A stretch of DNA of 61,454 nt, the filler included. It is 7 parts of 7 records of this genome, joined end to end, with 100 filler letters (N's around TTAATTAATTAA, not from the genome) between each part and the next. Parts side by side here need not be neighbours in the genome. Positions count along the whole stretch, not along the records: positions 23,810 to 37,776 come from SRR31156797_6136; 6 more parts are not named here. One strand, written 5' to 3'. The translations under genes were made by a program, and so were the position numbers. The notes beneath the pieces are model-generated. The model was not told the DNA's origin and ran no database searches. It saw only the letters and a program-made list of their open reading frames with translations. Position 1 is the first letter of the stretch, and each line of letters starts with the position of its first letter. This document shows positions 3,924 through 54,234 of this stretch, piece by piece.

Positions 3924-3963
3924 ACGATCTTCCTTGACTTGTAACTTGCAAAACCGCTTTGTG

Positions 3964-4007
3964 GAACATGTCCTGTTCTTGGCAAGCGCCAAAAACAGGA
4001 CATGTTC
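3964..4007 (-). terminator. Long stem-loop between dctP and dctQ (attenuator or mRNA stabiliser)
   Basis: GAACATGTCCTGTTCTTGGC-aagc-GCCAAAAACAGGACATGTTC, ~20-bp near-perfect inverted repeat. Confidence 0.65.
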
Positions 4008-4052
4008 ATCCCGCTCTTAATTTACATCTCTTTTTTACACTCGATGATCAAG

Positions 4053-5135
4053 TTACAGGTTGTTTTCCAGGTAAGAGTAATCCGACATTTTGGTCCATTC
4101 CCTGGCTTTTTTCTGATAGGCATTTTGAGAATCCAGAATCTTTTTCAGCATGGGATTACTTGCTGATTTTTCTTTCAGCAGTTTTTTGTTGGAGGCTTTC
4201 ATGGCATCCATGACATCTTTGGGGAATGTTTTTACCTTGATGTTTGGATACTCTTTTTCAATTTTAGACCAGGCCTCTGAACTCATGTGGTAATTCTGGG
4301 TATACATTTCATAGGCAGCCAGTTTCATGGCTGTTTTCAGGATGGCTTTATTTTGTTCAGATAATTTATTAAATTTCTTCTGGTTGACCAGGAACTGAAG
4401 TTCAGTGGCAGGTTCGTGCCAGCCCGTATAGTAATAGGGGGCAACCTTGTGAAACCCCATATTAATGTCCATACCAGGCCCAACCCATTCCAGGGCGTCA
4501 ATGGTGCCTCTTTCAAGGGCCATGTAAAGCTCGCCCGGTGCAATATTGGTAACGGTCAACCCTAAGTCGGCCATGACTTCCCCGGCAAATCCGGGAATTC
4601 GCATTTTCAAACCCTTGAGGTCATCCAGGCTGTTAATTTCTTTTGCAAACCAACCGCCCATCTGCTGTCCGGTGTTGCCGCCGGGAAAGGAAAGGACTTT
4701 ATGTTTGGCATAGGCTTCCTGCATTAACGCCATGCCGCCGCCATAATAGAACCAGGCGTTTTGTTCTGATGCTGTCATACCAAAAGGCATGGTGGTCAGA
4801 GGAAGAAGGGCAAGGTCTTTGCCTTTCCAATAATAGGAGGCGGAATGTCCCATGTCATACTGGCCCAGTTTTACCATGTCCAGAATGCCGAATGCAGATT
4901 TGTGTTTGTTGGCCGAGTCAATACGAATGGTGAAGTTGCCATTGCTCATGGTGTCAACCATTTGTGCCATGTTATACACTGCATCAGTAAATGGAGGGGC
5001 ATTGGATCCCCAGGTCATGGCCAGTTTCCATTTGACTTTTTTTTCCGCCGCACCTGCAAAGCCTACAGATAGCAGAAACATCAGAATGGTCAAAAAAACT
5101 ACGAATTTTGAATTAGTCTTTTCTAAACGCATCAT
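4053..5135 (-). CDS. dctP: TRAP substrate-binding protein DctP (2-oxoacid/monocarboxylate-binding TakP-like clade)
   Basis: Signal peptide; HSASYYWKGK, GNTGQQMGGWF, GLKMRIPG and YYTGWHEP motifs. Confidence 0.92.
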   Translation of the reverse strand: MMRLEKTNSKFVVFLTILMFLLSVGFAGAAEKKVKWKLAMTWGSNAPPFTDAVYNMAQMVDTMSNGNFTIRIDSANKHKSAFGILDMVKLGQYDMGHSASYYWKGKDLALLPLTTMPFGMTASEQNAWFYYGGGMALMQEAYAKHKVLSFPGGNTGQQMGGWFAKEINSLDDLKGLKMRIPGFAGEVMADLGLTVTNIAPGELYMALERGTIDALEWVGPGMDINMGFHKVAPYYYTGWHEPATELQFLVNQKKFNKLSEQNKAILKTAMKLAAYEMYTQNYHMSSEAWSKIEKEYPNIKVKTFPKDVMDAMKASNKKLLKEKSASNPMLKKILDSQNAYQKKAREWTKMSDYSYLENNL

Positions 5136-8359: not shown

Positions 8360-8459
8360 NNNNNNNNNNNNNNNNNNNNNNNNNNNNNNNNNNNNNNNNN
8401 NNNTTAATTAATTAANNNNNNNNNNNNNNNNNNNNNNNNNNNNNNNNNNNNNNNNNNNN
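8360..8459. other. Artificial contig spacer
   Basis: N-run + TTAATTAATTAA (stops in all six frames) + N-run; composition changes across it. Confidence 0.98.
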
Positions 8460-17613: not shown

Positions 17614-17713
17614 NNNNNNNNNNNNNNNNNNNNNNNNNNNNNNNNNNNNNNNNNNNNTTAATTAATTAANNNNNNNNNNNNNNNNNNNNNNNNNNNNNNN
17701 NNNNNNNNNNNNN
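17614..17713. other. Artificial contig spacer
   Basis: N-run + TTAATTAATTAA + N-run. Confidence 0.98.
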
Positions 17714-23709: not shown

Positions 23710-23809
23710 NNNNNNNNNNNNNNNNNNNNNNNNNNNNNNNNNNNNNNNNNNNNTTAATTAATTAANNNNNNNNNNNNNNNNNNNNNNNNNNNNNNNNNNN
23801 NNNNNNNNN
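23710..23809. other. Artificial contig spacer
   Basis: N-run + TTAATTAATTAA + N-run. Confidence 0.98.
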
Positions 23810-23810
23810 T

Positions 23811-24740
23811 GCTGTACAACACTCTAACCAACACTCTGACCAATCCACGGACGATCCCGTTCATTGGCTCACCGAAAGACAGGCTATAATTTTAAAATTT
23901 CTAATTCAAAATGAAAGCAATTTAACACGCCTACGCGATGTCACTCAAAACACTGATATTCCTAAAGGAACCGTCCGAGACTCCTTAAGGGTTCTAGAAA
24001 AATACGGATTTATTTCACACCCTGAACGTTTTAGAAGAGGGCGATTTCAAGGGTTTTCTTATTCTCCAAACAAAGAAAAATGTACCCGCTTTATGAAGAT
24101 TAGAGGCGATACCATCCCCTTACGGTTGACCGTACCGCAGACCGTACCGCACGCGGTACAACACTCTGACCGCCCTTTAAATTTTCCAGAAAACCCCACT
24201 CCTATTAAAAAGATAGATAGAAGATATATCTATCTATCTAAAGACGCGCGCGCGACCCTGTTGAATGCGAATCCGGTGCTCGGGGAAATTGGTTTTGAAG
24301 ATCGGCAATTGAAGGAGGTTATCGAAGCCTGGAAAATTTTAGGGCAAGATTTGACGACTCTGCCCGAATCATTGGAAAGGGTTACTTGGGCAATTGAAAA
24401 CGATTCGAAGGACAATCCGAAAATCGATAATGCGCTAAATTACGTTTACGGCTCATTGAAAAAAGGACCTTTTGCAAAATTGAAAGGATTCGTTTCAAAA
24501 AAAGAAAAAGCGCTACAAGAAAAAATTGACGAAGAACAACGCCTAATCGACAAAGAACAACAGATTAAAGAAAAACAGAAAGAACTCAAAAATCTTAAAT
24601 TCGAGAATTGGTGGAATAACTTGACGCAAAAAGAGCGAAATAACATTGACAAAACATCAAAATTCAAATTAACTGAAGGCAGTCCAGTAGCAATCGCACA
24701 TCGTATGAATCATTTTGAAAAGAGGGAAGGGGAGGGTTAA
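23811..24740 (+). CDS. Putative replication initiator with winged-HTH domain (5'-truncated)
   Basis: Frame is open from the contig edge, 94 codons upstream of the listed ORF: LTERQAIILKFL...TRLRDVTQNTDIPKGTVRDSLRVLEKYGFI (wHTH), flanked by 12-bp coding repeats. Confidence 0.6.
   Translation, partial: AVQHSNQHSDQSTDDPVHWLTERQAIILKFLIQNESNLTRLRDVTQNTDIPKGTVRDSLRVLEKYGFISHPERFRRGRFQGFSYSPNKEKCTRFMKIRGDTIPLRLTVPQTVPHAVQHSDRPLNFPENPTPIKKIDRRYIYLSKDARATLLNANPVLGEIGFEDRQLKEVIEAWKILGQDLTTLPESLERVTWAIENDSKDNPKIDNALNYVYGSLKKGPFAKLKGFVSKKEKALQEKIDEEQRLIDKEQQIKEKQKELKNLKFENWWNNLTQKERNNIDKTSKFKLTEGSPVAIAHRMNHFEKREGEG
23817..23852 (+). repeat. 12-bp tandem repeats in the rep-like gene
   Basis: CAACACTCTAAC CAACACTCTGAC CAATCCACGGAC. 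Confidence 0.7.
24129..24170 (+). repeat. 12-bp tandem repeats in the rep-like gene
   Basis: ACCGTACCGCAG ACCGTACCGCAC GCGGTACAACAC TCTGAC; shares GTACAACACTCT with the repeat at the contig start. Confidence 0.7.
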
Positions 24741-24988
24741 TGAATAAAGCGTCTTTTGACAATGAAATTCTGCGCGCCAGAACGATGGTTGAGTATGATC
24801 GAAAACCTGATTATTGGTATGCTTTTCAGGATGGCCTGAAACGGCAATTTTACGGCGATAAATATTCCAGCCAGGCCATTCACGATCTTTTGCTGAACCA
24901 GGTCCATTCGTCCGACGCCTGCCACCGGTTAAAAGGGAAGGGTTATCGGGACGGTTTTTATTTTCGTCCGGTTTTACGAAAATCTTAA
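24740..24988 (+). CDS. Hypothetical protein
   Basis: GGAGG RBS; TAATG coupling to the upstream gene. Confidence 0.75.
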   Translation: MNKASFDNEILRARTMVEYDRKPDYWYAFQDGLKRQFYGDKYSSQAIHDLLLNQVHSSDACHRLKGKGYRDGFYFRPVLRKS

Positions 24989-25064
24989 ACTCAGCTGTTA
25001 AAATTTTTAAATAATCTCGAATTATATTCGAAGATCAAAGCCTTAAACATAAGAAGGGGGTCCT

Positions 25065-26234
25065 GTGAAAATATCATATCGCGCAATCACGCCTTTTTTC
25101 GTACTTGTCTTGCTGTTAATCGTTTTTACCGGAACCGCAAATGCAATAACACAATCGAAATTTTATTATTCTTTCAAAGAACTGCCTGAATTTATTGCAA
25201 TTGATGCTGATGATAATGGCCTTTATGACTATTATCTGATTACCGATAGCCACTGGGTGGCCAGTGTGCATTGTTTTGGTGGTGTTGCCTGTGGTGATGA
25301 AACGCCGGAACTGGAAGCCTATGTTTACGAATGGAAATTGAATCCTGATCTAAGTAAAGAAATAATTTACGACAAACCCATTATGACCTTTTACGGCGAT
25401 AACCACAAAATTGAGTTCGATCTTCCTATCAAAAATTTGCCGTATCGAACTGTTGTGGTCATGAGGTTTTCGAATTGGGATCCTAATGAACCTCAAATAC
25501 ACGGTCGAAGCTATACGTTTTATACACAAAAACCCGACCCGGCGCCAGCCCCCCATATCTGGGAATATTACGATTGGGACGCGAAAGAAACTAAAGTCGG
25601 AATGCAAATGGACGACATTGGTGATCTTTCCGTTTTTAACAATCTGTTCGTCAACGGCGCTTCTGCCTGGGGGGACGCACCGTTTGTGCTTGGTCAGACT
25701 CTTCGAAATCGCGGAATGGTCATTTCTAACATGCATCCCAATTACCCCAAAAATATTTATTTCGGTTGGAATACCGGCCCAGTTCAAGAATTCGCCGAAA
25801 TCTTCGCTTTGCAGGAAGGCATCGCCTGGAAAAATCTTGTTCTGAACCCTCATGGCGGAAATTTGGGTGTCGGGACAAAAAACCCGAGATTCTTAATCGA
25901 TACAGCCGGTGGTGCTTATTGCAACGGGTCCGCCTGGGTCAACGCATCCAGCCGGGAACTGAAACAGGACATCCGGAGCCTTTCTTCAGCTGAAGCATTC
26001 GCCGTGTTGAAAAGATTGGTTCCGAAGGAATACGCCTATAAAGCCGATCCGTCGGAAAAGACCCTTGGCTTCATCGCGGAGGACGTTCCAGATCTGGTCG
26101 CCACGAATGACCGGAAATCCATCAACACGATGGACATCGTTGCCGTATTGACCAAGGTTGTTCAGGACCAGCAAAAGGCCATTGAAAGGCAACAAAGGGA
26201 AATTGAGAAATTGAAAGGTCTGTTGAAGAAATGA
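25065..26234 (+). CDS. Secreted protein with C-terminal intramolecular chaperone (peptidase S74 / tail-fibre chaperone) domain
   Basis: Signal peptide (ANA); GNLGVGTKNP; SSRELKQDI cleavage motif; GFIAEDVP; terminal coiled coil. Confidence 0.85.
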   Translation: MKISYRAITPFFVLVLLLIVFTGTANAITQSKFYYSFKELPEFIAIDADDNGLYDYYLITDSHWVASVHCFGGVACGDETPELEAYVYEWKLNPDLSKEIIYDKPIMTFYGDNHKIEFDLPIKNLPYRTVVVMRFSNWDPNEPQIHGRSYTFYTQKPDPAPAPHIWEYYDWDAKETKVGMQMDDIGDLSVFNNLFVNGASAWGDAPFVLGQTLRNRGMVISNMHPNYPKNIYFGWNTGPVQEFAEIFALQEGIAWKNLVLNPHGGNLGVGTKNPRFLIDTAGGAYCNGSAWVNASSRELKQDIRSLSSAEAFAVLKRLVPKEYAYKADPSEKTLGFIAEDVPDLVATNDRKSINTMDIVAVLTKVVQDQQKAIERQQREIEKLKGLLKK

Positions 26235-26247
26235 AATATATACGAGG

Positions 26248-26778
26248 ATGGTTATACTCATGAGTAAAACAAAACCAAAAAAACCAGTTGAAGGTTTTGA
26301 TGAGATTTATAATATCGTCGAAGTTTCAAAATTTTTAAGAAAAAGTTCACAATGGACGGTTCGGTATGCTGTAGAACTCGGAGGTGTGAAAATTGGTCAT
26401 ACTTGGTTTTTTGCAAAAAGCAACCTCGAAAGAATTTTGAAGGTTAGTGTTGAGAGCGAAAGTCAAATACTTCAATTGAAAAGAAATCGTTTAAACGCAT
26501 TGGCCGCTCTTATTGAATTGTCTGGTTTGAAAGACGATATTCAGAAAATTTCGAGTACGAAAATCCCGTCTGAATTTCTGGAGTTTGATGAAGTTCCTGT
26601 TTTGTTAAAAGATGATGAATTTTTGCCGGTTAAAAAAATCTCTGATTTATTGGGGTTAACCGTCTTTCAAATCCATAGAAACGCCGAGCAGCTTGGTGGT
26701 GTTTTTGTAGGCGGTAAAACCGGACGATGGCTATTTACAAAAAAACGTTTCATGGTTGCATTCCATAGCATCTCGTAA
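26248..26778 (+). CDS. Protein with two excisionase/MerR-like HTH domains
   Basis: Internal duplication: EVSKFL..ELGGVKIGHTWFF and KISDLL..QLGGVFVGGKTGRWLF. Confidence 0.65.
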   Translation: MVILMSKTKPKKPVEGFDEIYNIVEVSKFLRKSSQWTVRYAVELGGVKIGHTWFFAKSNLERILKVSVESESQILQLKRNRLNALAALIELSGLKDDIQKISSTKIPSEFLEFDEVPVLLKDDEFLPVKKISDLLGLTVFQIHRNAEQLGGVFVGGKTGRWLFTKKRFMVAFHSIS

Positions 26779-26789
26779 AAAAAACGCTC

Positions 26790-27371
26790 ATGTCAGAAAT
26801 AAATAGAAAAAAGAAAGAGCAAAATATCAAGGAGATATTTAAAGCCACTTTAGAAATTACAAACAATTATGGTCTCCTTGGTGCGACTATATCCAAAATC
26901 GCTAGTGCAGCTGAACTTTCTCCGGCAACGATTTACATTTATTACAAAAACAAAGAAGATTTAATGATTACAACATTTTCTCAGGTTTATAAAAAAATAG
27001 GTGAAGTCGCAAAAAAAAATCTTGATGAAAAAGGAACGATTGAAGATAAAATAAAACACTGTTACAGAAATATATTAGTTTTTTCAGTAAATAATCGGAA
27101 ATATTATAGTTTCTTTGAACAATTCGTTAACACTCCATATATCCAAAATGTCGATATTGATGAAGTCATAAACACCTTTAGCACTTGTTTATGTGTCATA
27201 AAGGAAGGAATGGCGGCAGGCCTTATCAAACCGGATATTAGCATTGCCAGATCATTTGTTTTTGGTACTATTATTTTTTTATCGAACCCTTACCTTTGCC
27301 CAGGATTTAAATTAACAAATGAAAAAATAGAAATGGCAGCTCAGTCATCTTGGGATGCCATAAGAAAATAA
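26790..27371 (+). CDS. TetR/AcrR-family regulator
   Basis: ATISKIASAAELSPATIYIYYKNKEDL motif. Confidence 0.92.
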   Translation: MSEINRKKKEQNIKEIFKATLEITNNYGLLGATISKIASAAELSPATIYIYYKNKEDLMITTFSQVYKKIGEVAKKNLDEKGTIEDKIKHCYRNILVFSVNNRKYYSFFEQFVNTPYIQNVDIDEVINTFSTCLCVIKEGMAAGLIKPDISIARSFVFGTIIFLSNPYLCPGFKLTNEKIEMAAQSSWDAIRK

Positions 27372-27702
27372 CTTCCCAGGGTAAACACATTCAGAGTTAT
27401 AGACGATGTGTGATACCGTGGAGAAAAAAATGAAAACGCTCAAATTCGCCCCAGGATCGCGGTTTATAAAAAATACGGCCCCTTTTACGTCTCGTCTCCT
27501 TAACGCTTCACACGGCCCCGATTTACTTCAAATTCTATGTAATGCAACACTGTGGAGGAAATATAACATTGTTTTTTTGTAGGGTAGGGCGTTTTGGCCT
27601 TCCGATTATGAAAATTTACATCAATGTTATTAAAAAAATAAACTGTTACATAAGGGGTTTTTAAAGGCAAACGCACATAATATTCGTGAATGTATAGATG
27701 GA

Positions 27703-27739
27703 TTATTCGTGATTTGTAAAAAAAATCTCTTAATACATA
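27703..27739 (+). repeat. 37-bp conserved upstream motif, copy 1 (putative promoter/operator)
   Basis: TTATTCGTGATTTGTAAAAAAAATCTCTTAATACATA; 35/37 identical to 34224-34260. Confidence 0.85.
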
Positions 27740-27810
27740 ATTAACGATGCGGTAAACAACGCAATCTCAAGTCAAAGCTCGGTACGCCGAGCAAGGAAAG
27801 GAGAATCATC

Positions 27811-28593
27811 ATGATCCAATATAATCGTATTGAGGCCGCGCTGGCCTCGCTGGCAGACAGCACGGACCGGAGCATCGCGCTCCGAAATGAGACCTTCACT
27901 TTTAGCGGGCTTAACAGCCCGTACGTTTCACACCAATCTTGTGTAATGTCCCAGGGGCACCATGTCCCTGGGACGGCCGTTTTTTCAAACGGCCGTTACA
28001 CCTTAGTGGTTACATGGAAAAATTCATGGGTTGGGTTTGACCCGGCTCTACCCACTTTTGACGAACCCAACTCACCTCATTGGCGTGCTCTTCCGGCCCA
28101 CATGGTTCAACCATTATTAAAATTTCCGGCCACAGCGCCGGAATGGTTAAGGGATGGCCGCGTCCTGTTTGTTATGGTCCCCGATTTTTTCTCTCATCTC
28201 GATGGTGAGGGAAAACCGGTTTTCCGGCCCACTTGCCGCATCACCGCCACTTTCTCCGATGGGCAGGGTAATGAGAGCCTTCGGGTTCTCGTCGAAGAAG
28301 ATAATTCGGAGGCTGTTGATTCGGCCTCTGGACTCCGGTTGTATAACGGCCGAATCTGGCAAGGCGGTAAAAATGGTAGCCCGCTTAGCCAAGAGCGGGT
28401 CGTAAACGTCGGTAAGGTTGAACCTTCTGATGAATTTGCGGAATTGATTCCGCAAACGCTGGGCGAATTCATCCAGTGTAAAACAGGGCATAAATGCCCT
28501 GACGAAAAAGGGGAATGGAGAGAATGTCCGGACTCTTGTCCGGGAAAAACCGAAAATTGGCACTGGCGGGATGCCAGTGCCGAAGAGGATTAA
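27811..28593 (+). CDS. Hypothetical protein, first gene of the orphan array
   Basis: AAGGAG RBS preceded by hairpin GCTCGG-tacg-CCGAGC; Cys-rich C-terminus. Confidence 0.8.
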   Translation: MIQYNRIEAALASLADSTDRSIALRNETFTFSGLNSPYVSHQSCVMSQGHHVPGTAVFSNGRYTLVVTWKNSWVGFDPALPTFDEPNSPHWRALPAHMVQPLLKFPATAPEWLRDGRVLFVMVPDFFSHLDGEGKPVFRPTCRITATFSDGQGNESLRVLVEEDNSEAVDSASGLRLYNGRIWQGGKNGSPLSQERVVNVGKVEPSDEFAELIPQTLGEFIQCKTGHKCPDEKGEWRECPDSCPGKTENWHWRDASAEED

Positions 28594-28602
28594 AAAATTT
28601 TG

Positions 28603-28642
28603 CCCGCAACTGGCGTAATGCCGGAAGCGGGTTCTTTTTTTT
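28603..28642 (+). terminator. Terminator-like hairpin with T-run
   Basis: CCCGC...GCGGG followed by TTCTTTTTTTT. Confidence 0.55.
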
Positions 28643-28652
28643 GGAGGATATT

Positions 28653-29190
28653 ATGAACTATGAAAAAGTTAAGACGACTCGCCGCCGTCTTGAAGATCAA
28701 ATTCGTCAGGACTGCGCCCGGCTTGAACGGTTAGGCGTTGACCCTGCGGAACTCGTCCAGGCCCTGGAGGGTTGTATGGGGTTTTGGTGGGGTGAATTGC
28801 AGGACATCGAGATTCCGGGGAAATAGCACAAATCGAAGAGAAGAGTACAACCGTGCCGTTCGTGCCGAAATGGCCGGTGGTGAAGGCACTCTCGAATTGT
28901 TGAGGAAGGTCTATTTCTTCCGGAATAAAAAAAAGCTTTATGGGTCAATTACGGATACAAGAAAATTATTGGCTGAAATTGAAACGGAGTTGAACGAAAT
29001 TAGGATGAAAAGAACAGAGAGTTTTATGGGGGTCGAATTCGAGATCGACTGTATCGCAGACAGAGACACATTGCAAAAACGTGCGCAAAACGGCGAACTT
29101 ACGCCGAATGGTTATTATATGGCGCTTAAAGCGTCGTGGAACAACCTGACTGATTCTGAAAAAGCCGAAGAATTGGGGAAAATTGCCTAA
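28653..29190 (+). CDS. Hypothetical protein, apparently frameshifted at G4 (28817-28820)
   Basis: GGAGG RBS then MNYEKVK...IEIPG; removing one G continues into NSTNRREEYNRAVRAEMAG...ELGKIA. Confidence 0.6.
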
Positions 29191-29251
29191 AAAACATGTG
29201 GTCCCCGGCATCCACACCGATACCGGGGGAGGGAAGAAAAGGAGTAACAAA

Positions 29252-29553
29252 ATGAAATTATGTGATGCATGCGGAAAACCAGTAAAAGGCGGGATCGGAA
29301 TTGGATCAGCACTGATGTGCCGAGAATGTGAGCCCCTGGTAGTTGCTGAAATCACCCGGCTCAGGGAGGACGGAAAACCGGTCAATGCCCTGCATATTGC
29401 TAAACGGATTTACCGGGAAAAAACAGTGGTGGAGATTACAGGCTCCGCGAAATCCCCGCCGATCTCTGGGACCGTGCAAAACACCGGGCGGTCGATGATG
29501 GGGATTCGTTGCGGGATCTGATTTTAAAGGCCCTGCATGAGTATTTAAAATAA
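29252..29553 (+). CDS. Zinc ribbon plus ribbon-helix-helix regulator, apparently frameshifted at A6 (29418-29423)
   Basis: AAGGAG RBS; CDAC...CREC; adding one A gives ...DYRLREIPADLWDRAKHRAVDDGDSLRDLILKALHEYLK*, a typical RHH pattern. Confidence 0.7.
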
Positions 29554-29581
29554 CCAGCGCGGGGGATAGCAAGAGGGAGGG

Positions 29582-29836
29582 ATGATCATGGAGGTACGAC
29601 GCATCAAGGGAGTCCAAGGCGGTTATCATATCACCCGTGTTAGAGGCTTCAATCAAGTAAATTACTTGCGGGCACCGGGAGAAAATTTTGAACTAGTTGC
29701 ATCTATTCCGTGCGGACAATTTGGTGGACCGGGGAATCCAGGATCGCCAGACCTTAGCCCGATGGGAAACCCGAATGCAACACGCGATATAAACACAGCG
29801 ATCATGGAACACGCCACTAGGGTCAAGGAGGGATGA
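29582..29836 (+). CDS. Hypothetical protein
   Basis: GGAGGG RBS; stop overlaps the next start. Confidence 0.72.
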   Translation: MIMEVRRIKGVQGGYHITRVRGFNQVNYLRAPGENFELVASIPCGQFGGPGNPGSPDLSPMGNPNATRDINTAIMEHATRVKEG

Positions 29837-30501
29837 TCATGAAAACAGTGAAAAATGACAGAATCCGCGTCACGGTATCAGATGAAAAATGGGAGTCGTA
29901 CCGTGACCATGCAGAGCGTTTGGTCCAGATCAGTGCAAATCGCCAAAATGTTGAGCAAACCATTCGGGGGCTCGTCTTGTCCGACGCAATGAGCAAAATA
30001 GGAAATCGCTCAGAAAAAGAATTGCTGAAAGACGAGAGACCAAGTAAGGCCGAAATTTTCGAAAAAGCGAGATTGATGCTGCGAGACCGTTATTTGGCAG
30101 AACATTGCAAATATGATTTAATGAATGTGCTTCAACGGCTTCATGCCGGCGCACGGCTGTCAACGGGAATGCAAATCGACGTTGATGAGGCAAATGCCTA
30201 TGCAGATGGCATTTTGAGCCCGATTACCCCTGAAAAGGCGACGAAAATCCTCGCCCCATACTTCGGAGAAAAAGAGAAAACAAGCGAGTATCGGCGAGTC
30301 CTTAAAAATACAAACTTACGGATGAATCCGAGCGAATACCCCGAAAAAATTCTGGCTGAGGCCACTGAAATTCTGCGAGAGGAAGTAGAAAACGAACGGA
30401 AATACCGTTCGGCCCGTAGTGACATGGACGGATGGGAAATTGAAATAATCGGCGACATGCCCGAACAAATCGGCATGTGTCGGTTTACCGCCACTCAATA
30501 A
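29833..30501 (+). CDS. Hypothetical protein
   Basis: GGAGG RBS; ATGA coupling; 222-aa ORF. Confidence 0.8.
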   Translation: MIMKTVKNDRIRVTVSDEKWESYRDHAERLVQISANRQNVEQTIRGLVLSDAMSKIGNRSEKELLKDERPSKAEIFEKARLMLRDRYLAEHCKYDLMNVLQRLHAGARLSTGMQIDVDEANAYADGILSPITPEKATKILAPYFGEKEKTSEYRRVLKNTNLRMNPSEYPEKILAEATEILREEVENERKYRSARSDMDGWEIEIIGDMPEQIGMCRFTATQ

Positions 30502-30521
30502 CCAGGAGAAGAAAAAAAACA

Positions 30522-30638
30522 ATGCCAACAAAAGAAGTTTTCTTTGAGAAATACAAGGGTGGAAAACGCAGAGAAGAGTATAATCGGGCCGTCCGAGCTG
30601 AGATGGCAGGTATTGATCGTACTCAGGATAGCGCATAA
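30522..30638 (+). CDS. 38-aa small protein (not in the ORF track)
   Basis: AGGAG RBS; MPTKEVFFEKYKGGKRREEYNRAVRAEMAGIDRTQDSA*; shares 15 identical residues with 28834-28878. Confidence 0.7.
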   Translation: MPTKEVFFEKYKGGKRREEYNRAVRAEMAGIDRTQDSA

Positions 30639-30658
30639 CACACAAGGGAGGAGACGTC

Positions 30659-30868
30659 ATGAAAGCGTGTAACGATCAAGAACAATGGGTGGACACTGGA
30701 CGGTGGGTTGCGTGGAATAACGATAGCCACAAAATTGAGGCGGATAATTTCGCTACAGCACATTCGTGTTTTAACTGGATTGATAAAAAATTTCCAGAAG
30801 ATGCAAACGGCGTCCAGGAAAATGTCAGGCCAGAATGGTTTGACTATGAAATTTCAGATGATCATTAA
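30659..30868 (+). CDS. Small acidic, Trp-rich hypothetical protein
   Basis: GGAGGAG RBS; 69 aa. Confidence 0.75.
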   Translation: MKACNDQEQWVDTGRWVAWNNDSHKIEADNFATAHSCFNWIDKKFPEDANGVQENVRPEWFDYEISDDH

Positions 30869-30905
30869 AAAACGGGGCCGTTAAAATCGAAAAACTTAGA
30901 GGAGA

Positions 30906-31381
30906 ATGATAATGTATCAGATAGCCGTTGCAGGGCATAAAATTGAGATTAAAAACATCGTGCAACAATACGATGAATGGGATTTCGTAACAGCGGAAGT
31001 AACGATCAACAGCGGTAAGCCGGTCGAATTCTACGCATATATTAATGATGGGGTTATTGACCGCTCTTCCGACAGCCATACAGCAACACGGATGCTGATC
31101 AGTTTGAATTCAAGGCAATGCTTGAAAGCCTGGAGGCTGAATCGGAAATCCTGCATAGAATTTCCGATGTTATCGATAAGGAAATTTCTTCACCATTGTC
31201 GGAAGAGGAAATTTCCGAAAAACTAAAATCCGCGGGCTTTAGGCTTTTGGGCCGTGACCCGTACCACAACAACGAGTGGCATGTGGCCCGGTGGATTGAT
31301 AATCATAGTTCAACGACAGTGGGGTACTACAACACCCTGAGAGAAATCGAAGCTGCGTTGACTTCAGGAGAAATGGGGTAA
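30906..31381 (+). CDS. Acidic hypothetical protein, apparently frameshifted near 31067
   Basis: GAGGAG RBS; adding one T joins ...VIDRS to FRQPYSNTDADQFEFKAMLESLEAESE...GEMG*, merging ORFs 30906 and 31118. Confidence 0.6.
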
Positions 31382-31986
31382 TGACTGACCCCCAGAACCA
31401 GAAAAGGAAAGAGGCGTACCGTGAGGCCGTGAACGCTAACGGCCTCAATAAAGCTGTTTTGACAGGTCTGCATCAAACTACGGAGAATACAGTTGATAAA
31501 TGGTTGTATTCTCAGAAACGGTATCCATCGTTTTTGGCATGTTGTGAGCTATACGCGTATTTGCGGATCATAAAAGGGGATATCCCAAATGATCTGTTTA
31601 CACTGTTTCAATCCCCTCGCCGAACAGCGCAGGCGTTTGTGAAATCCCAAAAAAAACGTAAGAGAACGGGGGGGCGCCCCCAAAAAGTCTACATTTTCGA
31701 CGGCAAAGAAATGGCAGTCAGCGAAATTGCCAAGGAGCTCGGTTTGCCACGAAAAACAACGTACGGCCGCATCTACGCTGCCAAATATACCAACATCGAC
31801 AAACCGGATGTCAGCGATATCCGACACCGGAAAAAAGTTGGCGTTACTATAGATGTAGAACAGGCACGCGCGTTGAGAAAGCAGGGGATGTCGTATGAAC
31901 AAATAGCTGAGAAATTAGGGGTAACACGACATACAGTGTATTTTCGGCTTAATTATAAGAAAATTTCTCACGTGAGGGAGGGATGA
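31381..31986 (+). CDS. Multi-HTH DNA-binding protein
   Basis: TTENTVDKWL, VSEIAKELGLPRKTTYGRI and GMSYEQIAEKLGVTRHTVYFRL HTH-like segments. Confidence 0.8.
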   Translation: MTDPQNQKRKEAYREAVNANGLNKAVLTGLHQTTENTVDKWLYSQKRYPSFLACCELYAYLRIIKGDIPNDLFTLFQSPRRTAQAFVKSQKKRKRTGGRPQKVYIFDGKEMAVSEIAKELGLPRKTTYGRIYAAKYTNIDKPDVSDIRHRKKVGVTIDVEQARALRKQGMSYEQIAEKLGVTRHTVYFRLNYKKISHVREG

Positions 31987-32174
31987 TCATAAAATACAAA
32001 TTAATCAGCGTCAAAGGGACGGAAGAATTTTCAGGGTCTGAGGCGGACGCTATTGAGGCCGCCATTGAAATGGAAGAAAATTTTCAACCCGCCTTCGGCG
32101 TGACGGTCGAGGATGCGGAAGGTGACACCGTCGCTGAAATACGCGACGGGAAATTGTATGATTGGGATGACTAA
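31983..32174 (+). CDS. Small, very acidic hypothetical protein
   Basis: GGAGGG RBS; ATGA coupling; about a quarter of residues are D/E. Confidence 0.78.
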   Translation: MIIKYKLISVKGTEEFSGSEADAIEAAIEMEENFQPAFGVTVEDAEGDTVAEIRDGKLYDWDD

Positions 32175-32207
32175 CCCCGCACACCCCCACTGGGGAAGGA
32201 GATAATC

Positions 32208-32639
32208 ATGGATTGGGCGCAAGAATTAATAGAGGATATTAAAGAAAAGGACCTGGCAGGATTTGAAGCGACAGATAGATTCTGCATTGCATACAAGGAT
32301 GGCGATTCAACGGATGCATGGGAAAAATTAGAGAAAGAGTCAATCCAGAAAGAAGACTTTGAAGGTTATATCCTCCTGCTTTTTGAGGATGGTTCGTGTT
32401 TCGCAGAGTGGAACGAAGGGACGGATAAATTTTATTCCCATGTGGGGGATTTGGAAGCGGAAGATGATGATGTTGAAAAACGGTTATCGCCATACCTGTA
32501 CGACGAAGACAATTTTATTGAAGCCCGGTGGACCCCTAACGGATCCATCGAATACCGTGTAAAGGAGCGTAATGACGGGTGGCAAATTACACCGCTTCAA
32601 GAGCACCCGGGAGAAAGTGTGTTGGAGTGGTTGCCGTAA
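32208..32639 (+). CDS. Very acidic hypothetical protein
   Basis: AAGGAG RBS; about a quarter of residues are D/E. Confidence 0.8.
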   Translation: MDWAQELIEDIKEKDLAGFEATDRFCIAYKDGDSTDAWEKLEKESIQKEDFEGYILLLFEDGSCFAEWNEGTDKFYSHVGDLEAEDDDVEKRLSPYLYDEDNFIEARWTPNGSIEYRVKERNDGWQITPLQEHPGESVLEWLP

Positions 32640-32676
32640 ACCACCGAATTGTTTTTACCGAAAGGAGACCTTTGGG

Positions 32677-33429
32677 ATGAATGATTTAATTACAATCGGC
32701 AATAATGGACGAGAAATTTCGGATACAAACTATTTCGATACCGAGCACGCAGCTCAGGGGTTTTTCTTCGCTTCTACGAACGCAGGCGCTGTTCGCCTGC
32801 TGGTGCCCGATTCTCAAATTGCCGTTATCACTGAATTTAAAACGGCCGAATACGTGATCTTATCCCGTGGTCCTTGGCCGGACCTTGGCTTTCGTCGTCC
32901 TGAAGGAATTGAATTGTTGTTCGAGGATTATAGCGATAACCCATTTGCGTTACATATGCCCCCCGAACAATTTGACATGCTCCCGGATGGAATAGGGGAG
33001 TGGGTTTTTGCGGTATGGACACGCAACGGCAAGCAATTTGAGTGTCCGTTAAAATATCGGAAAGTAGACCGAATTCCGTACATGAAAGAATGGATAGTGA
33101 AACGGGTTTTCCCGTTGAGAGTAGTATTGTCCGTAACGACAAAGCATTTGTTGACAGAGCCTGAAAATGACAAGGATAACGGAATAGGCGATATTGTCGA
33201 ATTAATTAGCTATATGGTGGGCATGAAGCTTTTTGATAGCCAATTGCCCAGTTTTGCGGAAAAATGCAGGACGGCTTTGTTATCTCAATATCCGGATCTG
33301 GCCTATGTTGATGATAAAGTGATTAATTCAATAAAGGCCGTTAATCCGGAAAATTGGATTAAGGTTTTGCTTGACAAATGTACGTCTGAATTCGGTTTAA
33401 AAGCAGAATATGAGGTGGATAAAATCTAA
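32677..33429 (+). CDS. Two-domain mobile-element hypothetical protein
   Basis: AAGGAG RBS before MNDLITI; N-domain TNYFDTEHA..NAGAVRLLVPD..ILSRGPW..ELLFED; C-domain FPLRVVLSVTT..QLP..LLSQYPDL. Confidence 0.78.
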   Translation: MNDLITIGNNGREISDTNYFDTEHAAQGFFFASTNAGAVRLLVPDSQIAVITEFKTAEYVILSRGPWPDLGFRRPEGIELLFEDYSDNPFALHMPPEQFDMLPDGIGEWVFAVWTRNGKQFECPLKYRKVDRIPYMKEWIVKRVFPLRVVLSVTTKHLLTEPENDKDNGIGDIVELISYMVGMKLFDSQLPSFAEKCRTALLSQYPDLAYVDDKVINSIKAVNPENWIKVLLDKCTSEFGLKAEYEVDKI

Positions 33430-34187
33430 TGAGACCTGTCGAACATTTGAACGATATCGAGGGAAGATATCCCAACGCTTGGAAATTGGTTGACAAGTTC
33501 CGTCGTGACCGGGGGAAAACCCTCCCGAATTGGCCGGAATGGTGTTTTCTACCAATGTCCGGTTGGTACGCAATTGTCAGCGATGTAGGTGATAAGTTAA
33601 CTGTGCCGTTCGATAGGGCTCTCGATATAGGGCGCCTTGCCGCTCTTGGGACATGGCGATATTCTCAAGGCGTTTACCGTTTTGATTCGAATATTTTTGA
33701 TACGCTGTGGAAGACCCCAATTACGGGAAATCTTCCAACGAATATGTTTTTAAGATTGCCGGAATGGTGTTTATATATCGAAATTCCAGGGCAAAAGAAT
33801 ATGCATGGTTTCTGGGTCCACCTGGAATCGGACACAAAAGATCATCGCAAAGAGTTACGGCTTTTAATGGACCTTGACGACGGGTTAATGCCGATGCCGA
33901 TACATATCGGTGATTGGCCCCTGGAAACCGCAATAAAAAAAGCTATTGTGGAAAGTTATCACCACATTCCGATGAAAACCACGATGGAAGTTCCGGGGAA
34001 GGACATAATGAAAGCATTTTCTGAAAGTATGGCACCGATGGTTTCCTTAGTCCTTTATCTCTGTTCAGAAAAACCGGATTTCGGAAAACCCACCCGCCCG
34101 GGGGTAAAAAAACACGGGTCTCGTTTGTTTCCGGCAAAAGGCCCCACTATTTGGCATATCGGTGATGAAAAACGGAAAAACCATTAG
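33429..34187 (+). CDS. AcrVA2/FinQ-family-like protein, C-terminally shortened
   Basis: Colinear motifs LGTWRYSQGVYRFD, PTNMFLRLPEWCLYIE, HGFW, LVLYLCSEKPD and PTIWHIG match my recollection of AcrVA2 (YGAWRNTLGIYQLD, PTSIFLNLPDWCVYVD, KGFW, LLWLCVAEPD, PFIYQIG). Confidence 0.72.
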   Translation: MRPVEHLNDIEGRYPNAWKLVDKFRRDRGKTLPNWPEWCFLPMSGWYAIVSDVGDKLTVPFDRALDIGRLAALGTWRYSQGVYRFDSNIFDTLWKTPITGNLPTNMFLRLPEWCLYIEIPGQKNMHGFWVHLESDTKDHRKELRLLMDLDDGLMPMPIHIGDWPLETAIKKAIVESYHHIPMKTTMEVPGKDIMKAFSESMAPMVSLVLYLCSEKPDFGKPTRPGVKKHGSRLFPAKGPTIWHIGDEKRKNH

Positions 34188-34223
34188 GGATAAGTATGGT
34201 GAAAAGCGCCTCTGTTGAAAGAT

Positions 34224-34260
34224 TTATTCGTGATTTGTAAAAAAAAACCCTTAATACATA
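34224..34260 (+). repeat. 37-bp conserved upstream motif, copy 2
   Basis: TTATTCGTGATTTGTAAAAAAAAACCCTTAATACATA. Confidence 0.85.
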
Positions 34261-34295
34261 TACAGAACGATAAAAATCTAAAAGGGAGAAATATT

Positions 34296-34580
34296 ATGAA
34301 ATACGAAGTTTCTCAGATATTTGCAAGCCTTGGAGACCCAAGTACCAAAACATTTGATAGCTGGGTGGCCGCTCAACACTATGCCAATGAATTAAAAGCC
34401 GACATAACGGACATGATTTCAGGTTGGGAAAACGCCCCCGCAAGTCAAGTCGGTTTTTCAAATGAATTTGAGGCATGGGACGAAGCTTACGAAATGTCCG
34501 ATGGTGGTGTGTTCTTTTCAGGGGCCGCTGCTCAAATGATCGCAAAAAAAGCAATTAAGATCGAAAAATTTAATGATTAA
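34296..34580 (+). CDS. Small acidic hypothetical protein
   Basis: AAGGGAG RBS before MKYEVSQ; lies downstream of motif copy 2. Confidence 0.78.
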   Translation: MKYEVSQIFASLGDPSTKTFDSWVAAQHYANELKADITDMISGWENAPASQVGFSNEFEAWDEAYEMSDGGVFFSGAAAQMIAKKAIKIEKFND

Positions 34581-34649
34581 CCCCGTTCCCCACCACCGAT
34601 GGTGGGGCATTTACATAAATTATAGGTATGCAACCGCTTTTCTCCTTAT

Positions 34650-34687
34650 CCCCCCGGATCCGAAGCTGATCCGGGGGGGTCTTTTCT
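34650..34687 (+). terminator. GC-rich terminator hairpin
   Basis: CCCCCCGGATC-cgaagct-GATCCGGGGGG followed by GTCTTTTCT. Confidence 0.75.
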
Positions 34688-34722
34688 CGTTTATAGTCCG
34701 GTTTTTTTAAAGGCAAAAAAAC

Positions 34723-35073
34723 GTGTTAACTGCTGAAGATTTTAAACCAGAAATTTTATGTAAAAAATTTCTTACTTGGTATCAGGAAAGAGAAGATTTT
34801 ATCGAAAAATCCGAATACCGGGAAGATCAACGGTATACTGTTTATATCTTCAGAAAGGATAAATATGGCGCCTATCTTTTGCGCGGGGGAAAACTTTGCT
34901 GGTCCGATGTTCCAGAAGACCAGCTCAATTATAATCGCATCCAGCAAAACGACCTTTTCATAAATTCTAAAAAACTCGGCAAAGTGGTTGTCTATGATCG
35001 ACAAGGTTCAGGAACAACCCTTGTCGGAAAATCCTTCGAATCAGCGATTGAAAAGATTAATCGTGATTTGTAA
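34723..35073 (+). CDS. Hypothetical protein
   Basis: 116-aa ORF with GTG start; its stop lies within partial motif copy 3. Confidence 0.6.
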   Translation: MLTAEDFKPEILCKKFLTWYQEREDFIEKSEYREDQRYTVYIFRKDKYGAYLLRGGKLCWSDVPEDQLNYNRIQQNDLFINSKKLGKVVVYDRQGSGTTLVGKSFESAIEKINRDL

Positions 35074-35077
35074 AAAA
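35055..35077 (+). repeat. Partial third copy of the conserved motif
   Basis: GATTAATCGTGATTTGTAAAAAA. Confidence 0.65.
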
Positions 35078-35445
35078 GAGAATGATTCTGGAAACCACGA
35101 GTGCTTAACCACCATAAAAATTAACAAAATTTTTATAGCCAAAAAAAGTGTATCTGTACGTTGTCACTCCCATAACAAAAACTTATTAAAACAGAGGCAA
35201 TAATTTCTTGACAAAATGGTTGAATCGATAGACGATCGTTATGTTGTGTTGATATAAATATTAGATTATTTTTTGATCGGAATACGTTGCGATAATATTA
35301 AAGGTAAAATATCCAAAAAAAACAATAAACCCGGATTTCAGATATTCCTAAATAAAATTCCGTACTTAAAACTTTGGAAGGATGTCTAATAATATAGTTT
35401 CGATTCAATTTTTGATTTAATGAAAAAAATAAAGGAGCCATAAAA

Positions 35446-35823
35446 ATGAACATCTCACCAGGAACTATAAAAAAAATGTATATCCCGCAGAACAAATTAG
35501 TTATTTTTACGGTTATCGGGTTGTCGACTTTTGATCAGTTTATGAATATTGCAGTTTCGTTTTTTGAAAAAAAAATCTTAAAACGGGTGATATGGGATTT
35601 TCGTCATGGCGCAGTTGGGCCATTTTCATCTCAACAACTGGATTCCCTGTTTTTAGCGAAAAATACAAAAAAGGATTTAAAATGCTTTATCATTGCTCCG
35701 GAAAATAAAACTTATCAAACAGAGGACAATTTCCGCTTACTTAACAAAATGAAAGATCTTCCGGTGAATGTTAAAGTAGGACGTAATGTAACGTTTGAAG
35801 AACGTACTTGGTTATTTTCGTAA
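35446..35823 (+). CDS. Small alpha/beta (STAS/SEC14-like) hypothetical protein
   Basis: AAGGAG RBS; VIWDFR and FIIAP strand pattern. Confidence 0.55.
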   Translation: MNISPGTIKKMYIPQNKLVIFTVIGLSTFDQFMNIAVSFFEKKILKRVIWDFRHGAVGPFSSQQLDSLFLAKNTKKDLKCFIIAPENKTYQTEDNFRLLNKMKDLPVNVKVGRNVTFEERTWLFS

Positions 35824-35845
35824 AATTCTTTTAGGGGAAGCAACA

Positions 35846-36427
35846 ATGCAAAGTTCAAACGCCGCTTATTCTCTAAAACCCCTTGAAATTAAAAAACTGA
35901 TTCGGGCCTGTAGGACGCTTCGGGAAAGAATTATCATCAAACTCATGGCCTATTCAGGATTACGCCGTGAAGAGGTGGCCAACCTCAAAATCGAAAAAAT
36001 TGATTGGGAAAGGAATCGGATTAGTTTTATCGGAAAATATCGTCTCGATGGGTCGGTCCCGATTGCTCCGGACCTCATGCAGGACATCCTGTTTTACCTG
36101 GCCGGCAGAAAAGAGGGGCCGGTTTTCCCTTCGAGAAAAAATAAAAAGAACTGCATTTGTCTGGTTCAGATTAATCGGATCGTTTCTGATATTGGGGTCA
36201 GAGCCAAAATCAAAAGTCCGAATCCTAAAAGTAAGACGCGCCATGTAACGCCTCATTTACTCAGGCATTCCTTTGCGCGTATGGCTAAAGATTCGGGATT
36301 AACGACGGAGGACGTTCAAAAGTTGCTCCGTCATAGCTCATTTGCTACAACGATGAACCTTTACGGCACAAAATCTTTTTCGGATGTTCAGGAAAGTTAT
36401 GAAGAAAAATTCCTGAACTATATGTGA
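35846..36427 (+). CDS. Tyrosine recombinase (catalytic domain only)
   Basis: SGLRREE, PHLLRHSFA and LRHSS.ATTMNLY catalytic motifs; start reassigned to MQSSN. Confidence 0.93.
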   Translation: MQSSNAAYSLKPLEIKKLIRACRTLRERIIIKLMAYSGLRREEVANLKIEKIDWERNRISFIGKYRLDGSVPIAPDLMQDILFYLAGRKEGPVFPSRKNKKNCICLVQINRIVSDIGVRAKIKSPNPKSKTRHVTPHLLRHSFARMAKDSGLTTEDVQKLLRHSSFATTMNLYGTKSFSDVQESYEEKFLNYM

Positions 36428-36526
36428 CCAAAAAGCCTCAGGGCCCCAAATGCGGTTTTTCGGGGCTTTTTTCAAATAAAAATGTTTATTTTAAGCGGGT
36501 TATCATATGGTCCCTTTGATTAAAAA

Positions 36527-36820
36527 ATGATCATTTCTAATAATCCAAAATGGCCGGACTCTAAGCCCATGTGGGTGGTGATGCGGGAAAAAGAACGCAA
36601 CTCTAAAACGGAGAATACACCCGAATCAATGAGGCAAAAGCTTCGGGCTTTTCGGCAGGCCTATCCCTGGGCGTCCAGGTGGCAATGTGTTTTAGCGGTA
36701 AAATTAAGTGACTGCAAAACAAGAGAAGAATTTGAACAAAAAATCGAAAATTTCAGAGACCAGCAAAAGTATGTTTTGTCTAAGATTTTCGAGAACGCGT
36801 GGAAAGAGATACCAAAATGA
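36527..36820 (+). CDS. Hypothetical protein
   Basis: 97-aa ORF; stop overlaps the next ATG. Confidence 0.55.
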   Translation: MIISNNPKWPDSKPMWVVMREKERNSKTENTPESMRQKLRAFRQAYPWASRWQCVLAVKLSDCKTREEFEQKIENFRDQQKYVLSKIFENAWKEIPK

Positions 36821-37137
36821 AATTCTTAACCGACGTAAAAGAAAAACGATTTATTTGTCTCGAATGTCACGCAACGGCCCGTGTTGTCACTCTTGAAGAA
36901 ATAGATGTGGCCTGGTGTGATACTTTCGAATGTGTCAACAACAACACAATGGTTAATTTAGACGGTCGGTGGGAAGAATTCGAACATGAAGATATTTTCG
37001 AATTAGACGAAATCCAAGGCCTGTTGTTCAAAGAGGTCTTCGTTAATTCGTGGGAGAACCGAGTCCAGGGTAACTCTTCAAAAGCCGCTCGGCCTCGCTC
37101 CCATCTGTCTCTTGTGAGTCCACATATAAGAATCTAG
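36817..37137 (+). CDS. Hypothetical protein with CxxC motif
   Basis: ATGA coupling at MKFLTDV; CLECH. Confidence 0.55.
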   Translation: MKFLTDVKEKRFICLECHATARVVTLEEIDVAWCDTFECVNNNTMVNLDGRWEEFEHEDIFELDEIQGLLFKEVFVNSWENRVQGNSSKAARPRSHLSLVSPHIRI

Positions 37138-37163
37138 ATCCGAGCACCCCTTCATCCGGATTT

Positions 37164-37421
37164 ATGATCACCGCCGTTTGGCATGGCCTGGAACCGGTTG
37201 CCATGCTTTCGGAGAGATCGTCGCCCCCGATAATTGTAATCAAAAATTTACCTTTTTCGGTAGAAAAATCACCCCTGTTTTTAACTCAAAAACACTCAAA
37301 ATTCGAAGCCCCCTATTATAAAGGAGTACTTCTTTATAATAGGGGAACTTTTTTTCAGCCTGTGGCCATCTTTATTGGGCCGCTCGATCCATCGACCGTT
37401 TATCAATCGTTTGCAACATGA
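37164..37421 (+). CDS. Hypothetical protein
   Basis: 85-aa ORF on the element's coding strand. Confidence 0.4.
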   Translation: MITAVWHGLEPVAMLSERSSPPIIVIKNLPFSVEKSPLFLTQKHSKFEAPYYKGVLLYNRGTFFQPVAIFIGPLDPSTVYQSFAT

Positions 37422-37526
37422 AACGTCCTGGCGCGGTCCATTTTAGCATCGCCGCGAGCGACAACATTGTGAAAATCGCTAATTATATCCAATCAAAATG
37501 ATTTAAAATCGAAGAGGTTTTGTAAA

Positions 37527-37776
37527 ATGAAAGGCATACGCGAAAAAATTATATCTTTGTTTGAAATGGATGTGGCAGGTCGGGGTTATTGTTCCAAAGA
37601 AATCCACGAACTTTTCGGTTTTAGTCGAAGTAGAATCGATGAAATCTTGTCCGATCTTTTCAAGAAAGGCTGGTTGATCCAAAAAGACCCAAGCAAAATA
37701 AGGGGTAAAAATCGGAATATTTTGTATAAAAAACCCGGTCTTATTTCCGGTCTTATTTCCGGTCTTAACCCGGTCT
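37527..37776 (+). CDS. Winged-HTH protein (3'-truncated), running into tandem repeats
   Basis: GAGG RBS; SKEIHELFGFSRSRIDEILSDLFKKGWL. Confidence 0.7.
37735..37776 (+). repeat. ~12-bp tandem repeats at the contig end
   Basis: CCGGTCTTATTT CCGGTCTTATTT CCGGTCTTAAC CCGGTCT. Confidence 0.8.
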
Positions 37777-37876
37777 NNNNNNNNNNNNNNNNNNNNNNNN
37801 NNNNNNNNNNNNNNNNNNNNTTAATTAATTAANNNNNNNNNNNNNNNNNNNNNNNNNNNNNNNNNNNNNNNNNNNN
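37777..37876. other. Artificial contig spacer
   Basis: N-run + TTAATTAATTAA + N-run. Confidence 0.98.
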
Positions 37877-44417: not shown

Positions 44418-44517
44418 NNNNNNNNNNNNNNNNNNNNNNNNNNNNNNNNNNNNNNNNNNNNTTAATTAATTAANNNNNNNNNNNNNNNNNNNNNNNNNNN
44501 NNNNNNNNNNNNNNNNN
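44418..44517. other. Artificial contig spacer
   Basis: N-run + TTAATTAATTAA + N-run. Confidence 0.98.
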
Positions 44518-54134: not shown

Positions 54135-54234
54135 NNNNNNNNNNNNNNNNNNNNNNNNNNNNNNNNNNNNNNNNNNNNTTAATTAATTAANNNNNNNNNN
54201 NNNNNNNNNNNNNNNNNNNNNNNNNNNNNNNNNN
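54135..54234. other. Artificial contig spacer
   Basis: N-run + TTAATTAATTAA + N-run. Confidence 0.98.

Follow-up and report, generated by a model that had tools for sequence, protein, structure and literature searches.

A peptide of 15 amino acids (aa), RREEYNRAVRAEMAG, is encoded twice on the plus strand of one contig in the window analyzed here (the whole stretch of DNA, 61,454 nucleotides (nt) in length), at 28834-28878 (copy A) and at 30567-30611 (copy B). We propose that this peptide represents the conserved core of small all-helical proteins (89-125 aa) that belong to a rare, uncharacterised family found on mobile DNA, and that it reads as a repeat because two partial copies of the family gene overlap in the family's core box. 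The 38-codon open reading frame (ORF) that contains copy B would then be a truncated paralogue, and the pair would represent two incomplete, anciently diverged gene copies within one same-strand gene block of a mosaic mobile element, an explanation that we consider probable. The window consists of seven contigs and is not one molecule; the contigs are joined by filler (N44, a 12-nt stop-rich linker and a second N44, at 8360-8459, 17614-17713, 23710-23809, 37777-37876, 44418-44517, and 54135-54234), and the jumps in G+C content between 30% and 62% along the window are due to the joining of separate contigs. Both copies lie on the contig at window positions 23810-37776 (13,967 nt), and genes outside it are not physical neighbours of the repeat.

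Translation and comparison of the two 45-nt copies confirmed what the initial annotation had reported, namely that they encode the same peptide with nine base differences, all at third codon positions and all silent. Of the 135 single-base changes possible in copy A only 32 are silent, and when nine substitutions were placed at random 2,000,000 times the peptide was unchanged in no case, so the pattern is neither chance nor neutral DNA. Among the 14 degenerate codons, nine are different between the copies, where 9.24 ± 1.68 would be expected for independent draws from the codon usage of the island (1,910 codons). Since the observed number is close to the expected one, the silent sites are saturated and the divergence is old. 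The absence of any replacement change against this saturated background supports the earlier conclusion that the peptide is under purifying selection. The further claim that a short free-standing motif is the target holds only in part, as the peptide is conserved but is the core of a whole family, and selection need not act on the 15 residues alone. For the docking motif or decoy suggested in the initial annotation, the results speak neither in favour nor against.

The repeat might also act as DNA or RNA, for example by serving as an operator, as a site of recombination, or as an antisense target, with the shared peptide being incidental. With a DNA repeat finder the similarity does extend over 62 nt (76% identity), and in one antisense frame, too, none of the nine changes alters an amino acid, but the latter is explained by shared wobble positions. 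Only at copy A does that antisense frame stay open over 30 aa or more, and the homologues described below establish the sense frame as the coding frame. Moreover, the longest identical run between the two copies is only 11 nt, all nine differences fall at sense wobble positions, and the divergence at silent sites has reached the limit set by random synonymous choice, so that nothing beyond the peptide is conserved. We therefore regard a role at the nucleic acid level as very improbable.

The family was recognized by an exhaustive phmmer search of 1.84 billion representative proteins using window positions 28822-29187 as the query, which gave 18 proteins at E ≤ 0.001. One of them, P0001 (95 aa, E 6.6e-20, 71% identity), is a singleton cluster and spans query residues 4-66. 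The matches to 16 of the 18 are confined to the C-terminal query residues 58-121, and P0002, a low-complexity repeat protein, was set aside. Together, the exhaustive protein search and the DNA scans yielded three full-length relatives of 89-125 aa. In addition to P0001, these are an 89-aa member on a metagenome contig (L001:209-475), which came from a metagenome scan with a three-sequence alignment, and an unannotated 125-aa ORF on the Desulfosarcina ovata plasmid NZ_AP021877.1 (83764-84138, minus strand of the record, equivalent to 3959-4336 of locus L002), which came from a tblastn search against plasmids and matches P0001 with an E value of 5e-5. The opposite strand of the D. ovata DNA carries an annotated 324-aa "hypothetical protein" that by its look is low-complexity and basic, and this annotation may be a mis-call. 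With the window, four loci thus define a previously unnamed small-protein family, whose conservation runs at about 70-79% identity.

Five sequences were aligned (A7), and the columns without variation, which are concentrated in the box, are M1, G13, E18, N21, A23, R25, A26, E27, and G30. The core of the box, E..N.A.RAE..G (E18, N21, A23, R25, A26, E27, and G30), is present in both window copies. It is preceded in the family by an N-terminus of the type M-P/D-..-F-..-K/R-Y-K/R-G and followed by middle helices of the type TL.LL...R...L..IR (family residues ~31-72) and then, after EIR or YIR, by a C-terminal stretch (MV.E...RY) that is common to the three full-length members. The AlphaFold2 (AF2) model of P0001 is all-helical and places the box in a helix at residues 17-29, with low confidence (predicted local distance difference test, pLDDT, 66); judging from this model, the box probably forms the second helix of the family protein.

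No family was assigned by Pfam, PHROGs, NCBIfam, or PADLOC to either copy, to P0001, or to the 57-aa ORF and the 61-aa module that flank copy A (see below), and there was no usable match in the ESM Atlas for the 38-aa ORF or P0001. A sequence profile of A7 found nothing in the PDB below an E value of 0.17, and Foldseek with the P0001 model (pLDDT 66) gave no PDB match at E ≤ 0.001. A locus search with alignment A1 in genome and viral contigs returned nothing, a word-indexed protein search with the 150-aa ORF of copy A gave no matches, and in the literature the string RAEMAG was found only in one unrelated botany paper. Within the contig, the N-terminus of a 201-aa helix-turn-helix protein (31402-31437) shows a weak likeness over 12 aa to the first part of the box (58% identity with residues 15-26 of P0001, E 1.8), which is probably due to chance.

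Comparison with P0001 by tblastn shows which parts of the family protein each window copy retains; beyond copies A and B, no piece of P0001 was found on the window at E < 1. Copy B lies in the 38-codon ORF at 30522-30638, which has an AGGAG Shine-Dalgarno-like site (30505-30509) 12 nt before its ATG. Its positions 30522-30629 correspond to P0001 residues 1-36 (72% identity, E 1.1e-13), with 21 of the 30 residues of the head identical, including 10 of the first 15. The family N-terminus is therefore present, the middle helices are absent, and a divergent tail of eight residues leads to a stop eight codons past the box. Copy A has the middle helices: its positions 28834-29004 correspond to P0001 residues 16-72 (79% identity, E 1.3e-25), with the box at residues 16-30, and the family homology stops at EIR, where an unrelated module of 61 aa follows in frame with no stop between them. 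The C-terminal stretch of the family is absent from both copies. The description of the flanks as unrelated in the initial annotation is only partly true, as the repeat extends over the 62 nt mentioned above and each flank consists of family sequence, in the one copy before the box and in the other after it. The truncated paralogue, which had been offered there as an alternative, becomes the best supported reading, given that the homologue alignment matches the 38-aa ORF to residues 1-36 of a 95-aa relative.

Given this saturation of the silent sites, the two copies are either old paralogues or separate acquisitions, and they are about as distant from each other as from P0001. Two other origins were ruled out, recent tandem duplication by the saturated silent sites, and the homologous integration of a circle, with crossover in the box, by an identity of only 80% over 45 nt. 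A self-comparison of 27700-36500 revealed no further duplicated coding segment, and the genes flanking the two copies have no similarity to each other.

The homology, the truncations, and the saturation of the silent sites are established by these results, and on them we base a probable course of events. The nine silent differences and zero replacements would reflect long purifying selection on the box while both lineages coded for protein. Copy A has kept residues ~16-72, its N-terminus being divergent or replaced and its C-terminal stretch lost at the in-frame junction to the 61-aa module. Copy B has kept only residues 1-30, followed by the short divergent tail and stop, and we infer that it was truncated from a full-length gene during the module shuffling that is typical of such elements. 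The 38-codon ORF thus most plausibly represents the front part of a truncated gene copy, either a 5' gene fragment or a possible mini-protein, and is most likely a translatable remnant of unproven function.

Several points weigh against this interpretation. There is no decay in the 30 homologous codons of copy B, which has an intact ATG, a Shine-Dalgarno site, and 15 of 15 box residues identical to copy A. Its tail differs from the family at G31 and L35, two positions that are uniform in the four other aligned members, and if the tail has changed since the truncation while the head stayed constrained, this could favour a maintained mini-protein. Since there are only four other family sequences, the estimates of conservation are weak, and selection after the truncation has no copy B orthologue as a comparison. 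In addition, copy A lacks both a Shine-Dalgarno site and the family C-terminus and may itself be an inactive remnant, in which case the contig would have no intact family member and to call copy B the paralogue of a functional gene would be too strong.

These points bear most directly on a second reading, in which the 38-aa ORF is a maintained head-only micro-protein (helix 1 and the box helix) that is translated and shares the partner of the longer member. It could act, for example, by competition for that partner or by forming mixed oligomers, as truncated-paralogue micro-proteins do. Apart from the intact translation signals, the conserved head (21 of 30 residues with P0001 and 15 of 15 with copy A), and the altered tail, this reading is favoured by the spacers of ~20 nt to the genes on both sides and by the location of the D. 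ovata relative among early-entry plasmid genes, a setting from which many small uncharacterised proteins are reported (PMC11541004). On the other hand, an intact head is equally well explained by recent truncation, the D. ovata plasmid carries the family gene only once, and the exact box pattern had no match in viral, genome, or metagenome contigs. Nor was a head-only relative found: a search with a 53-aa reading of the ORF gave no candidates among proteins of 29-93 aa, and no conserved short form was seen in related elements by protein, viral, genome, and metagenome searches, which have low power for a family this rare. On balance we view a maintained micro-protein as possible but doubtful. 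Somewhat less likely still is a more elaborate form of it, in which a micro-protein that keeps the two N-terminal helices and the box but not the hydrophobic continuation would titrate or remodel its partner as a self-encoded modulator of an early-entry function, and the family would be a new class of small effectors of leading regions and integrative islands. Truncation, with copy B as a remnant that could still be translated, remains our preferred explanation.

The reading frames around copy A require separate consideration. Its box lies within a 150-codon ORF (28738-29190), and the family gene itself would extend from a candidate GTG start at 28792 to 29004. Only F-R-G of its divergent N-terminus aligns to the family type, and none of the candidate starts of copy A is preceded by a Shine-Dalgarno site, nor is the 61-aa module. 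Upstream is a 57-aa ORF (28653-28826, plus strand) that has a strong GGAGG site but is in a different frame; it ends at a TAG and overlaps copy A, counted from the candidate start, by 35 nt. The initial annotation had placed copy A in a protein of ~178 aa and copy B in a 38-codon ORF, and while the latter stands, there is no continuous ORF for the former. As the 57-aa ORF stops in another frame, a 178-aa product needs a +1 shift at or near a run of four G's (28817-28820), which lies just before AAA-TAG and is the sole place where such a shift could join this ORF to copy A.

A three-part protein of 178 aa (57-aa ORF, copy A, and 61-aa module) could in principle arise at this site by +1 ribosomal frameshifting, or its gene could have been broken there by a recent frameshift mutation; the box would then be an internal segment of that protein, in line with the initial annotation. 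The lengths are compatible, as 28653-29190 comprises 538 nt or 179 codons and one base, and a Shine-Dalgarno site is found at the 57-aa ORF alone among the three parts. The G4 run is also not an assembler slip, given that a Logan contig of one sequencing run, likewise 13,967 nt long, is identical over 27700-31300 with no indel, although that run is possibly the source sample and hence not independent data; it was the sole run among those listed with the locus, where there was no RNA run. The sense codon and stop after a G-rich run at 28817-28826 resemble the arrangement of the prfB site. By the same comparison, however, re-pairing from AAA to AAU would be poor, and the G run lies immediately adjacent instead of at a distance of 3 nt. 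Furthermore, the three full-length relatives begin independently (M-P/D...F..KYKG) with no upstream fused domain, the frame-0 family similarity of copy A (F/Y-R-G) starts upstream of the G4 run, and a GTG start coupled to an upstream gene is normal for the family, since a GTG overlapping the stop of the preceding gene is likewise the start of the D. ovata member. We therefore think a fused product improbable. Because the homologues have no upstream fused domain, we favour over it a GTG start at 28792 that is coupled to the 57-aa ORF and would give copy A an N-terminus of family-like length.

The 61-aa module (29005-29190, plus strand, in frame with copy A) belongs to a different small-protein family. 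The 16 relatives aligned to it (P0003-P0018; phmmer, alignment A3) are of 61-77 aa in 13 cases and of 52, 102, and 123 aa in the others, and 13 of the 16 are matched from their own residue 1-6, meaning that they are stand-alone proteins beginning at the corresponding Met; P0003 carries a C-terminal extension. The box family and the 61-aa family are unrelated, as indicated by an hhalign probability of 0.2%. The AF2 model of the module (pLDDT 87) consists of a beta-hairpin and three helices and gave no Foldseek match in the PDB at E ≤ 0.001. No locus was found in viral contigs with the alignment of this family (A8), which has no Pfam or PHROG match.

The two copies are located in a segment of 6.5 kb with a G+C content of 46.8%, compared to 39.4% on both sides of it within the contig. 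The segment is bounded by 37-nt direct repeats of 95% identity (27703-27739 and 34224-34260), and a third, partial copy (35048-35082) constitutes the 3' end of a gene encoding 116 aa (34723-35073) that lies upstream of a tyrosine recombinase. This layout looks like att-type duplications, with insertion beside a resident integrative element. The recombinase, which is downstream of the segment, is encoded by two overlapping ORFs in different frames (35446-35823 and 35795-36427), where the C-terminal piece matches positions 92-263 of a XerA-like model and the N-terminal piece has no family match, and it is possibly a pseudogene. The segment itself is a same-strand series of small genes, nearly all of which have no family assignment in Pfam, PHROGs, NCBIfam, or PADLOC, and by our reading a Shine-Dalgarno site lies upstream of 15 of the 19 candidate starts in the block. 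No match to phages or plasmids was obtained by megablast with 27800-36500, a search of viral contigs for loci with the island proteins 33429-34184 and 29833-30498 found nothing, and tblastn of a 132-aa ORF against phages gave none.

Two further features of this gene block were observed. An ORF of 89 aa with a zinc-ribbon-like CxxC...CxxC pattern (29252-29553) changes frame at a run of six A's at 29418, after which the reading resembles a ribbon-helix-helix tail; its sole PDB sequence match is a CopG-family protein (E 0.35), and there is no Pfam match. From the sequence, the A6 run is possibly a -1 frameshift or a slippery site. Together with the split recombinase, the frame change may mean that the block is undergoing decay, although this is not settled. 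A boundary sequence of 23 nt is common to three gene junctions (29571-29593, 29822-29844, and 31972-31994) and consists of a Shine-Dalgarno site with an overlapping stop and start of the GGGAGGGATGATCATG type. Such boundaries are possibly recombination linkers between gene modules.

As to function, the D. ovata gene is in a same-strand block with genes for DUF4942, a single-stranded DNA-binding protein (SSB), antirestriction, and ParB beside a TraA relaxase, according to the annotation of the record. The gene next to it on the upstream side is homologous to the window gene at 32677-33429, in the N-terminal part of the latter (tblastx, E 2.7e-37), and thus the two loci share two gene families. 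By analogy with the D. ovata gene context, the family would have a role in early entry or establishment.

The essence of our analysis is that no special short-motif biology is required to produce an identical peptide with only silent differences and unrelated flanks, since this can come about when partial copies overlap in their core. What is new is the unnamed small-protein family, defined by four loci including an unannotated ORF in a plasmid block resembling a leading region, and we also draw attention to the module family with its 16 relatives and its predicted well-folded structure. Should the 38-aa product prove to be synthesised and active, it would exemplify, in bacteria, a micro-protein born by truncation.

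Four known systems offer comparisons. In prfB-type +1 frameshifting, which involves a sense codon and an in-frame stop, a preceding G-rich run, and a downstream ORF in the +1 frame, these elements are all matched by the site before copy A, which differs in its poor spacing and re-pairing and in having homologues that are unfused to the upstream ORF. Micro-proteins derived from truncated paralogues can act as dominant-negative partners, a concept that comes from eukaryotic and phage regulators. The 38-aa ORF is similar in consisting of conserved N-terminal helices with a longer member of its family in the same operon-like block, but the searches described above found no conserved short form among relatives. 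Plasmid leading regions, from which small uncharacterised genes are reported (PMC11541004), resemble the block of the D. ovata relative beside the relaxase, whereas general family-library scans recognized no relaxase, oriT, ssb, or antirestriction gene on the window contig. Finally, mosaic mobile elements with partial paralogues are unlike the present case in three respects: it is not a recent duplication, as its silent sites are saturated; each window piece keeps a part that the other lacks; and the copy B fragment keeps its own translation signals. They are alike in having two same-strand pieces, here 1.7 kb apart among small unrelated genes, with junctions at gene boundaries and with one piece fused in frame to a module of another family, and as it stands the case is one of ordinary mobile-element mosaicism.

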